A stretch of DNA of 29,963 nucleotides from an uncultured Planctomycetia bacterium (GTDB taxonomy: Bacteria > Omnitrophota > Gorgyraeia > Gorgyraeales > Gorgyraeaceae). Positions 2,071-5,599 of this stretch are shown here, in pieces. Below the pieces are notes generated by a model that ran no database searches, was not told where the DNA came from, and saw only the letters and a list, made by a program, of their open reading frames with translations. The position numbers and the translations under genes are program-made. Each line of letters starts with the position of its first letter. The first letter of the stretch is position 1. The stretch lies in contig CAZBAQ010000001.1 of NCBI GenBank assembly GCA_964489855.1, positions 1 through 29,963 of the forward strand, written 5' to 3'.

Positions 2071-2153
2071 TGGTGCGCGGGGAGGGACTCGAACCCTCAA
2101 GCCAAAGGCATACGCCCCTCAAACGTACGTGTCTGCCATTCCACCACCCGCGC
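2071..2153 (-). tRNA. tRNA-Leu (anticodon GAG), CCA encoded
   Basis: Minus strand GCGCGGG...CCCGCGC-A-CCA acceptor stem, anticodon arm TACGT-TTGAGGG-GCGTA, class II variable arm, T-arm GAGGG-TTCGAGT-CCCTC. Confidence 0.97.
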
Positions 2154-2165
2154 ATGAAATCTATC

Positions 2166-2249
2166 TGGCTGCGCTAAGCTGTATAACCTATAATTCTATC
2201 TCTTAACACAAGCAAGCCTATTATATAGAACATAGCGCCAAATATCAAG
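2166..2249 (-). repeat. Cassette distal end ('L2' arm), copy 1; degenerate direct repeat of 3491-3573
   Basis: Shared blocks with near-identical spacing (plus strand): TG(G/A)CTGCGCTAAGCTGT, +15 nt ATCTCTTA, +13/14 nt ATTATA, +15 nt AATATCAAG. Confidence 0.85.
2220..2248 (-). promoter_or_regulatory. Sigma70-type promoter facing tRNA-Leu
   Basis: Minus strand TTGATA (2248-2243), 17 nt, TATAAT (2225-2220); same hexamers and spacing at 3544-3572. Confidence 0.8.
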
Positions 2250-3330: not shown

Positions 3331-3372
3331 ATTATAACAAATGACAACATAAATGACAACTAAAATGACAAC
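3331..3372 (-). promoter_or_regulatory. fic promoter (probably leaderless) overlapped by three 10-bp direct repeats
   Basis: Minus strand TTGTCA (3359-3354), 17 nt, TATAAT (3336-3331), 6 nt, ATG with no Shine-Dalgarno; AAATGACAAC at 3339, 3351 and 3363 (12-bp period). Confidence 0.75.
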
Positions 3373-3382
3373 CGGAAAGAAA

Positions 3383-3492
3383 AAAATAACACCCTAACCC
3401 TTTGACACATAAAGAGATAAAAAATACCCTGACTAGCATTGCCAATCAGGGTTAATCTTATCTCTCCATCTGGAATTTGAGAGATTACTGTG
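3383..3492 (-). repeat. Cassette proximal end ('R1' arm), copy 1; 110-bp direct repeat of 5418-5527
   Basis: Hand alignment gives about 8 substitutions and a compensating 1-nt indel pair over 110 bp; the junction-proximal 35 bp are identical (3458-3492 = 5493-5527). Confidence 0.95.
3417..3452 (-). terminator. Intrinsic terminator in R1 copy 1
   Basis: Minus strand ACCCTGATTGGC-AAT-GCTAGTCAGGGT followed by ATTTTTTAT; the two stem changes relative to copy 2 both give G-U pairs on this strand. Confidence 0.85.
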
Positions 3493-3573
3493 ACTGCGCT
3501 AAGCTGTCACAGTGTTAAGAGCATCTCTTACTTTACAGTCCTTATTATAGTAAGAAATTTCGAGAATATCAAG
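3491..3573 (-). repeat. Cassette distal end ('L2' arm), copy 2, including promoter TTGATA-17-TATAAT (3572-3544)
   Basis: Same conserved blocks and spacing as 2166-2249. Confidence 0.85.
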
Positions 3574-3709
3574 AGAATAGAACGATTTAGAGATAAAGTT
3601 ATCGTGGTTTTCGCGATATCCGTCATATTATCCGATTAAATACGATCGATTAAATAGTGGGCATTTTAGAGATAGAGAGATAGATTGCGCTGTAGTAATA
3701 TATAGGTCT

Positions 3710-3746
3710 GAGATTGTTTCGGTCGACTTCGTCGGCCTCCAATGAC
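3710..3746. repeat. REP-like palindromic element
   Basis: GAGATTG...GGTCGAC-TTC-GTCGGCC...CAATGAC; central hairpin at 3721-3737; resembles from memory a widespread GAGATTGC...CAATGAC intergenic repeat. Confidence 0.45.
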
Positions 3747-3922
3747 AAGTTTTAAAAGATCGTTCTAAACCTTTGACTTTACAAGACATAGGTAAGACCC
3801 ACTTACATTTCTGTAATTGGGCCTTACCTTTTATCTCGAACTTACCCACTCCGTAATCTCTATTCTCACAGCGGGTTAGAACACATCGAAAATGTGTGAA
3901 GGAATCTAAAACAAAGGGCTGG

Positions 3923-5082: not shown

Positions 5083-5417
5083 GAATTACAGATTATAACT
5101 TTTCAATATAAGAATAAGAAATTTATATCCTTCCCTTCATGGCTCTATCCCATATTCTTGCGGCAATAGATATGATCTCTTTTTCCCGCTCCTTTAGAGA
5201 AAGTTTAGAGCTCGGTTTAAACCTACCAAATTCCCAGTTAATGCCTAAAATATCACTCAAATTATTCGAAATACAGACGATAATGCCATTAACTAGCAAG
5301 CATTAACTACGAGGCGATTCCGAGATAAAGAGATAGGCTAGCGAGATTTATCCGACTATTTTAGACGAACCTAGGGGAAAATAACATTACAAGATCCAAA
5401 ACAAATAATTGCTGCAG

Positions 5418-5527
5418 AAAATAATGCCCTAACCCTTTGACACCCAAAGACATAAAAAATACCCTGATTAGCATCGCTAATCAGGGCTTAATTTATCTCT
5501 CCATCTGGAATTTGAGAGATTACTGTG
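5418..5527 (-). repeat. Cassette proximal end ('R1' arm), copy 2, abutting the tRNA-Gln CCA
   Basis: Direct repeat of 3383-3492. Confidence 0.95.
5452..5487 (-). terminator. Intrinsic terminator downstream of tRNA-Gln (R1 copy 2)
   Basis: Minus strand CCCTGATTAGC-GAT-GCTAATCAGGG perfect 11-bp stem followed by TATTTTTTAT. Confidence 0.88.
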
Positions 5528-5599
5528 GCTGGAGGAGATGGATTCGAACCATCACGACGAGTTCCAGAGACTCGCATCCTACCATTAGATGATCCTCCA
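5526..5599 (-). tRNA. tRNA-Gln (anticodon CTG), CCA encoded
   Basis: TGGAGGA/TCCTCCA-G-CCA acceptor stem, anticodon arm CGAGT-CTCTGGA-ACTCG, T-arm GATGG-TTCGAAT-CCATC. Confidence 0.97.

Follow-up and report, generated by a model that had tools for sequence, protein, structure and literature searches.

Does a strong promoter that runs into a terminator after about 120 nt mark a gene for a small RNA, or can such a unit arise where the ends of two mobile elements meet? This question is raised by positions 3417-3572 of the window, a stretch of 29,963 nucleotides from a 1.12-Mb, 83%-complete MAG of Candidatus Omnitrophota. The initial annotation had read this minus-strand unit as a complete small-RNA transcription unit at an attP-like joint of two element ends, here called L and R. 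It had proposed a junction-specific non-coding RNA, with a speculative analogy to the bridge RNAs of IS110, or alternatively a recombinase-binding palindrome. Our analysis shows that the unit is the seam of L2 with R between two single-gene units stacked behind a tRNA-Gln gene. The explanation that we consider probable is that tandem, recombinase-less derivatives of small integrative elements meet at this seam, and that the RNA enclosed between promoter and terminator is incidental.

Sequence signals of the seam unit

As letters, everything that the initial annotation had listed is present: the promoter at 3572-3544, the three hairpins and the terminator. A consensus scan over 3.7 kb places the promoter, with 11 of 12 consensus positions, among its three best matches. 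The intrinsic terminator is formed by 12 pairs at 3452-3426, six of them G-C, and is followed by T6. Hairpin 1 is located at 3530-3516, hairpin 2 at 3513-3487, where it spans the core, and hairpin 3 (ATCTCTC-12-GAGAGAT) at 3485-3460. A 129-nt stretch folds with -50.9 kcal/mol, which corresponds to z = -6.96 against shuffles. The predicted RNA of ~120 nt had been described as having no ORF, and indeed none of at least 20 aa is found in it. In addition, a contig from a public lake-water run matches 3386-3615 with zero differences, and therefore the joint is not an assembly artefact.

The unit carries the marks of a sigma-70 promoter and of an intrinsic terminator, namely consensus hexamers at 17-nt spacing, a G+C stem and a T run, and these are kept in homologues. 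Judged by its letters, the seam is a strong promoter facing a terminator, both of them real as sequence signals. Identity across type-b junctions is 96-99% in the promoter hexamers and 78% in the spacer; this higher conservation of the hexamers points to selection on promoter function. Both TTGATA and TATAAT are also kept in L003, the one type-a homologue.

The refuting case named by the initial annotation was that the RNA is simply the start of a read-through fic mRNA. This is unlikely, given the strong terminator and the separate promoter of fic, also with 11 of 12 consensus positions, downstream of it. Three 12-bp direct repeats (AAATGACAAC...) at 3339-3383 of the window overlap the -35 hexamer and the spacer of this fic promoter, and the fic ATG is located 6 nt after the -10 hexamer. 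The arrangement suggests a leaderless, operator-controlled gene.

Two single-gene units between tRNA-Gln and tRNA-Leu

On the minus strand, the window reads tRNA-Gln(CTG), R copy A, MscS, L2, R copy B, Fic, L1, 12 nt and tRNA-Leu(GAG) (Table 1). The two tRNA genes are separated by 3.37 kb, ordered R-MscS-L-R-Fic-L. In three relatives, G009, G003 and G014, the gap from tRNA-Gln to tRNA-Leu(GAG) is 1, 72 and 102 nt, with neither R nor L between. Since these sites (loci L041, L044 and L027) are unoccupied, the 3.37 kb of the window must be inserted DNA. It holds two single-gene units of 2035 bp (MscS) and 1325 bp (Fic), neither of which encodes a recombinase. The R arm is 108 nt long, and its two copies, A after tRNA-Gln and B at the seam, are 90% identical.

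Table 1. Features between tRNA-Gln and tRNA-Leu in the window, in the reading order of the minus strand
Feature	Position	Strand	Evidence
tRNA-Gln(CTG), 3' end ...CAGCCA, proposed attB-side core	5526-5599	-	ARAGORN; Rfam tRNA 57 bits
R arm copy A: hairpin ATCTCTC-12-GAGAGAT, terminator 5487-5461, conserved tail	5418-5525	-	90% identical to 3383-3490
Extended R arm of cassette 1, without recombinase gene	5225-5417	-	Homologous to the R-to-serine-recombinase stretch in relatives
Cassette 1 cargo: MscS-type mechanosensitive channel gene, 349 aa	3923-4972	-	Pfam PF00924, PF21082, PF21088
L2 arm, outward promoter TTGATA-17-TATAAT	3544-3572	-	11/12 consensus positions
L2 leader ending ACAGCTTAGCGCAGTCA (3507-3491); core CAGTCA 3496-3491; unique T 3493	3491-3537	-	
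Predicted junction transcript, ~120 nt, no ORF	3417-3537	-	Fold, ORF list, pair counts
R arm copy B: hairpin 3, terminator 3452-3426 and T6 at 3424-3419, conserved tail	3383-3490	-	
fic promoter TTGTCA-17-TATAAT with TG, downstream of the terminator	3331-3359	-	11/12 consensus positions
Cassette 2 cargo: Fic-domain protein gene, 350 aa	2272-3324	-	Pfam PF02661, E = 6.5e-21
L1 arm with promoter 2248-2220, a leader and the terminus ...GCAGCCA; transcription would enter tRNA-Leu after 12 nt	2166-2249	-	
tRNA-Leu(GAG), next gene after tRNA-Gln in unoccupied relatives	2071-2153	-	ARAGORN

A short core is common to the ends and the target, with CAGCCA at 5531-5526, CAGTCA at 3496-3491 and CAGCCA at 2171-2166. 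The terminus ...GCAGCCA of L1 (2182-2166) is also found in 26 other junctions. The order R...genes...L is the circular permutation expected of a circle bearing L-R that has recombined with the tRNA-Gln end, and L-R would then be an attP-type joint. The attP-like joint of the initial annotation is supported: the unoccupied tRNA sites show insertion, and autonomous relatives carry a large serine recombinase beside R, as described below. Its statement that the unit exists only where L abuts R also holds, with the promoter in the L arm and the terminator in the R arm.

At position 3493, a T makes the inner core CAGTCA of the window differ from both outer CAGCCA cores. This T could block separate excision of either cassette by a serine integrase. 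More speculatively, a crossover dinucleotide including 3493 would leave the outer cores alone compatible with each other, tying both cassettes together. In contigs from four lake-water DNA runs, which give ~3-4x fragmentary cover, we found no joint skipping a cassette and no circle or empty-site form. The sole joints in this comparison came from unrelated high-depth contigs with 20-25-nt sides.

Seams and cassettes in other Omnitrophota

A metagenome scan with the junction pattern returned 27 contigs and, together with further loci, yielded 26 distinct L-R seams. The alignment used in this study contains 27 seams, the window and 26 other Omnitrophota sequences. With a covariance model built from these 27 seams, full-length seam units are found in ~9-10 of the 38 family genomes, belonging to at least six genera. 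Arrays are common and consist of co-oriented cassettes, one to five ORFs each, with seams between them. The accessory genes carried between seams are diverse and include those for a nucleotidyltransferase, ArsR together with a cation-efflux protein, a GDSL lipase, an outer-membrane protein and an FAD enzyme, as well as RND efflux, MscS and Fic. Within the arrays, the cassette ORFs are co-oriented with L and R, whereas the recombinase operon runs on the other strand.

A second insertion site is tRNA-Gln(UUG), which also ends in CAGCCA and is used at L020 (G007:C45, 7651-7877). At L017 (G021:C9, 10482-14349), a 3.6-kb unit lies between tRNA-Gln(UUG) and an R arm and ends in a type-a L arm like the L2 of the window. 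Downstream of it are Band7, Band7 and an MscS that is 64% identical to the cassette MscS of the window. A third kind of left flank is joined to R at L008 (126-310) and L077 (3889-4073). It is composed of a tRNA-like fragment (GTTCGAATCC T-arm motif) and then AGAGATATAGTT...CAGCCA, and it has the AGAGATA block and the core alone in common with L. A palindromic repeat, GTCATTG...GACGAAG...CAATC, occurs family-wide; it is located at 3715-3752 of the window, within cassette 1, and in many relatives (L004-L008, L015) it comes directly after R. A block of ~85 nt related to this repeat is inserted between core and R in L010, L056 and L020.

A large serine recombinase adjoins R in relatives

The genome G007 contains a complete 8.4-kb unit at the same place, which runs from tRNA-Gln and R through an opposite-strand recombinase gene with a DUF2924 gene and an RND efflux operon to an L-R joint. 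Its recombinase has 551 aa with Resolvase, Recombinase and Zn ribbon domains, is related to the integrases of TP901-1, A118, SPbeta and phiC31, and its gene is preceded by the DUF2924 gene. A large serine recombinase adjoins R in G007, G012 and metagenome contigs, and remnants are found in five more loci. Besides G007, a serine recombinase gene or its C-terminal remnant adjoins R in the genomes G012 and G013 and in five metagenome contigs. By locus, such a gene or C-terminal remnant is located just past R on the opposite strand in L005, L018, L082, L085, L092, L093 and L099. In the window itself, the ~190 nt after R copy A match the recombinase-flanking arm of L082, L107, L083, L008, L016 and others at 85-93% by blastn. 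Our literature search found no paper combining Omnitrophota with a serine recombinase.

Protein search, tblastn and Pfam detected no serine recombinase of any type in the window or in the whole 83%-complete assembly. Therefore, the units of the window are non-autonomous at most, and they appear to be deletion derivatives of serine-integrase elements. The assembly contains two XerC/D-like genes; beyond these, its sole Phage_integrase match is a 395-aa tyrosine recombinase on contig C23. Tandem stacking is unexpected from the canonical attP x attB reaction of a serine integrase; it would be accounted for if a regenerated site were reused as in SCC, or if the ~100-bp arms underwent homologous recombination with each other. 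At L055 (G047:C35, 1245-1416), a serine-recombinase gene that is cut off after ~residue 38 borders directly on an L terminus, and therefore an element end lies inside the recombinase gene of another element.

Conservation and structure of the predicted RNA

Across the 27 junctions, the seam unit has a mean column identity of 87%. Pairing was counted on the 27 seams for each predicted helix. Hairpin 3 has 99% of its cells paired; it is essentially invariant, the loop included, and is uninformative. The terminator has 97% of its cells paired, with many A-U/G-U alternations and a few double (compensatory) changes, and its G-U and compensatory changes fit the tRNA-sense strand. Hairpin 1 is paired in 61% of its cells, its interior pairs being mostly broken, and hairpin 2, across the core, in 35%, with interior or central pairs in 1-3 of the 27 sequences. 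In the nearest homologue, G021, hairpin 1 loses 2 of 6 pairs and hairpin 2 loses 3 of 8, uncompensated, as counted by eye. Hairpin 3 and the terminator are conserved, whereas hairpins 1 and 2 are idiosyncratic to the window copy. The conserved part belongs to the R arm and also follows tRNA-Gln, so it is not junction-specific.

On the 27 seams, every covariation measure equals the shuffle mean, RNAalifold keeps hairpin 3 and the terminator alone, and no conserved structure or covariation is seen in the leader or across the joint. Covariation over homologous junctions was one check that the initial annotation had put forward, and it had also suggested an Rfam/Infernal search. In Rfam 15, two tRNAs were the sole matches (E up to 1) for the window and four related loci. 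A junction-specific structured non-coding RNA finds no support in these results. A leader helix, GCGUUAAG/CUUAGCGC, with a terminal stem was also considered; it is 90% paired with zero compensatory changes and was set aside as unusable.

The C-to-T change at 3493 does perfect an 8-bp inverted repeat, ACTGTGAC-11-GTCACAGT, as the initial annotation had stated. The repeat exists in the window copy, but the T is unique to it; the other 26 junctions have C. Moreover, the dyad centre of the repeat lies off the core, and around the core itself no dyad symmetry of the L-R joint is evident by eye. The initial annotation had also suggested testing whether loop segments match the 3' end of tRNA-Gln or the spacer, next to its speculative analogy to the bridge RNAs of IS110. 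The longest complementarity of the RNA to the flanks of tRNA-Gln or tRNA-Leu is 7 nt, a length reached by 35 of 500 shuffles and hence expected by chance, and identity to the 3' end of tRNA-Gln or to the flank of tRNA-Leu likewise does not exceed chance. The DEDD transposase of IS110 (PF01548) was not found in the assembly, in which controls matched, and the associated recombinase is a serine integrase. Serine integrases are not known to use a guide RNA. Taken as a protein site over the core or as a source of guiding loops, the inverted repeat is an extremely unlikely key to this locus, and neither the palindrome nor the bridge-RNA analogy was retained.

Two further observations concern the L leader at the DNA level. 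In columns 29-42 of alignment A1 (the variable part of the type-b L leader; L1 of the window at ~2202-2186, minus strand), what look like two tandem 7-mers change together as direct repeats. They read GTTATAG and GTTATAC in L1 of the window, GTTGCAT and GTTGCAC in L029, and are direct, not inverted; their letters suggest a DNA-level protein site rather than an RNA stem. The sharp 3' boundary of L was also considered as IS200/IS605-like, with subterminal hairpins, or as TnpB-omega-RNA-like. This reading was rejected, as there is no TnpA/TnpB and the recombinase linkage accounts for the boundary.

Proposed roles of the two arms

Each unit has a tRNA-proximal R arm with a hairpin and an intrinsic terminator, and a distal L arm with an outward sigma-70 promoter, a ~55-nt conserved leader and GCAGCCA, the same letters as the 3' end of tRNA-Gln. 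We propose that tRNA-Gln is targeted at its CCA end, so that the elements come to lie between it and tRNA-Leu(GAG), and that the recombinase would join L-R (attP) to the tRNA-Gln end (attB) inside the CAGCCA core. The R terminator would then end the tRNA-Gln transcript and shield the element, and in autonomous members also the recombinase gene that lies antisense. At the other end, the L promoter would restore transcription of tRNA-Leu, which is deprived of its upstream promoter by the insertion. In stacked elements or in an excised circle, the promoter would face the terminator, giving a short, probably constitutive RNA of ~120 nt. The conserved first 55 nt may reflect recognition at the DNA level, either as an att-site arm or as accessory-protein sites, for which the AGAGATA motif common to both arms is a candidate. 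By this account of the letters, the ~120-nt seam RNA is most likely a by-product and not a selected product.

Both arms are found in these positions in relatives. The R hairpin and terminator follow tRNA-Gln in the window, G012, G008, G007, G013 and others. L precedes tRNA-Leu(GAG) in ~10 genomes, and in several of them the leader is deleted at short repeats and the promoter is kept directly before the tRNA. The L module has sharp limits, the -35 hexamer on one side and GCAGCCA on the other. It is multicopy (G047 has up to 11 matches), and R, tRNA-Leu or other sequence comes after it. It is also present away from the tRNA locus, in front of protein genes.

The sharp boundary and the copy number would also fit a different origin, in which L-R is an autonomous host small-RNA gene and its likeness to cassette ends is secondary, R being a generic trailer of CCA-ending RNAs and L an RNA gene transcribed from a promoter of its own. 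The possible leader helix, 90% paired, could be counted in its favor, but the helix lacks compensatory change. In addition, the order at the tRNA locus is R...genes...L and not L-insert-R, the unoccupied sites have neither arm, and R is linked to recombinase genes and their remnants. A host gene is very unlikely on these grounds.

On contig C87 of the genome of the window (L069, 4083-4140, minus strand), part of an L leader, reaching from the -10 region to ...GGGCAGCC, lies in a 70-nt gap just upstream of a glmU-like ORF and far from the tRNA locus. In relatives, L modules stand before protein genes at L061, L064 and L058. As a portable promoter, the L module may spread or be kept in place. 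The motif AGAGATA/TATCTCT recurs in both orientations and in both arms, at 3460-3485, 3519-3526, 3583-3598, 3662-3677 and 5315-5335 of the window and in the arms of relatives. It is found again in extended arms, ~100-200 nt from the core. By its distribution, the recurring motif resembles arm-type accessory-protein sites.

The reading of the seam RNA as a by-product has to be weighed against the conservation of the leader, which at 89% is more than a mere by-product needs. Further points against the proposed explanation are that the assembly yielded no serine recombinase and the lake-water contigs no circle or empty site, that stacking is unexpected for a serine integrase, and that L modules also stand elsewhere, before protein genes. 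The full unit of promoter, 55-nt leader, hairpin and terminator with its U tail is kept in 27 junctions, and L followed by a terminator other than R also occurs (L052, L065), as would likewise be expected of a genuine small-RNA gene. Hfq-type sRNAs begin with an unstructured 5' seed, followed by a hairpin and then a terminator, and the seam resembles this layout. A functional sRNA made only in the L-R state could act in trans or in cis, through its conserved and apparently unstructured 5' part, on element state, copy number, recombinase expression or target genes. However, neither covariation nor a junction-spanning structure is found, Rfam has no match, both halves of the unit are sufficiently explained separately, and the leader is dispensable where L drives tRNA-Leu. 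This makes such an sRNA quite unlikely. Put more broadly, as a selected, state-reporting sRNA or a regulated leader made only in the stacked or circular state, whose conserved 55-nt 5' part acts on the recombinase, on cassette expression by terminator read-through or on host targets, the idea still has only a small chance of being correct. If it were true, the family would be an integron-like cassette system driven by a serine recombinase, with every seam acting as an expression switch.

Alternatively, the L promoter might drive the next cassette at every seam, as the Pc promoter does in integrons, with R as a leaky or regulated attenuator and the short RNA as the terminated fraction of an mRNA. 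A classical attenuator is laid out as promoter, leader, hairpin, terminator and gene, and the seam has this order. The cargo ORFs of the arrays are co-oriented with L and R, opposite to the recombinase operon; in 16 of 27 cassettes, a crude scan found no promoter with at least 10 of 12 matches between the terminator and the first ORF; and in some cassettes these are just 34-106 nt apart. Yet fic in the window has its own 11/12 promoter past the terminator, the terminator is strong (12 pairs, T6), an alternative antiterminator pairing is not conserved, and the same R follows tRNA-Gln, where attenuation is not needed. We regard attenuation as unlikely and retain the meeting of two element ends as the explanation of the seam.

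Comparison with known systems

The cassette arrays share features with several known systems. Recombinase-less SCC remnants stack side by side. In SCCmec and ECC as in the Omnitrophota arrays, a large serine recombinase (here in relatives) is associated with the 3' end of one conserved gene as target and with variable cargo, units with and without a recombinase are stacked, and multiple att sites mark the seams; multiple attR sites have been described in complex SCC/ECC elements (PMC6222049). The target, however, is rlmH there and the CCA end of tRNA-Gln here. The Omnitrophota units are tiny, about 1.3-8 kb and often one gene, and their ends carry a terminator and an outward promoter. Their recombinase has a DUF2924 partner and need not be a relative of Ccr, and recombination at their sites is a prediction from sequence.

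ICEclc-type elements have an outward constitutive promoter at the circle junction; once the element has integrated, this promoter stands before the downstream gene (PMC13393423). Likewise, the Omnitrophota elements have at one end an outward promoter that would read across the circle joint and faces the downstream host gene once integrated. The junction transcript of ICEclc runs on into the integrase gene, whereas the Omnitrophota seam transcript would meet a terminator within ~120 nt, with the recombinase gene antisense beyond it.

Like integron arrays, the Omnitrophota arrays contain co-oriented, mostly single-gene cassettes without their own recombinase, conserved recombination-site seams and one fixed anchor site. 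Unlike integron arrays, they have a promoter and a terminator in each seam and lack IntI, the GTTRRRY core and an attC-type imperfect palindrome: no IntI-type tyrosine recombinase and no attC were found, and the boundaries read ...GCAGCCA followed directly by CA(G/T)(T/A)AATCTCTC. With the Islander-type islands of tRNA genes, which depend on tyrosine integrases, the family shares the tRNA 3'-end target, a short core that regenerates the tRNA and tandem accretion, but its recombinase is a serine integrase and the shared core is just 6-7 bp at the very CCA end. The IS110 bridge RNA is likewise a non-coding RNA at an element end or joint, with the joint supplying the promoter. The Omnitrophota seam differs from it in that it lacks both a DEDD transposase and a conserved two-loop structure and shows no complementarity to target or donor. 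By this comparison, SCC-like arrays and the outward promoter of ICEclc-type elements are already known, and the Omnitrophota seams are a variant of both.

Implications

Our results mostly deflate the claim of a small RNA, in that the unit is the product of two modular element ends meeting. They also carry a warning for genome scans, as promoter-to-terminator units at island seams can mimic sRNA genes. If the recombinase-bearing relatives act as proposed, they might supply a serine integrase that is specific for tRNA ends and has defined att sites. For Omnitrophota, an uncultured phylum with small genomes, the finding means that it carries a widespread family of very small, serine-recombinase-linked cassettes between tRNA-Gln and tRNA-Leu. 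The ends of these cassettes appear to be built to replace disrupted host signals, with a terminator at the entry and a promoter at the exit. If this signal replacement is true, the family would be a compact natural example of a low-cost integration design.
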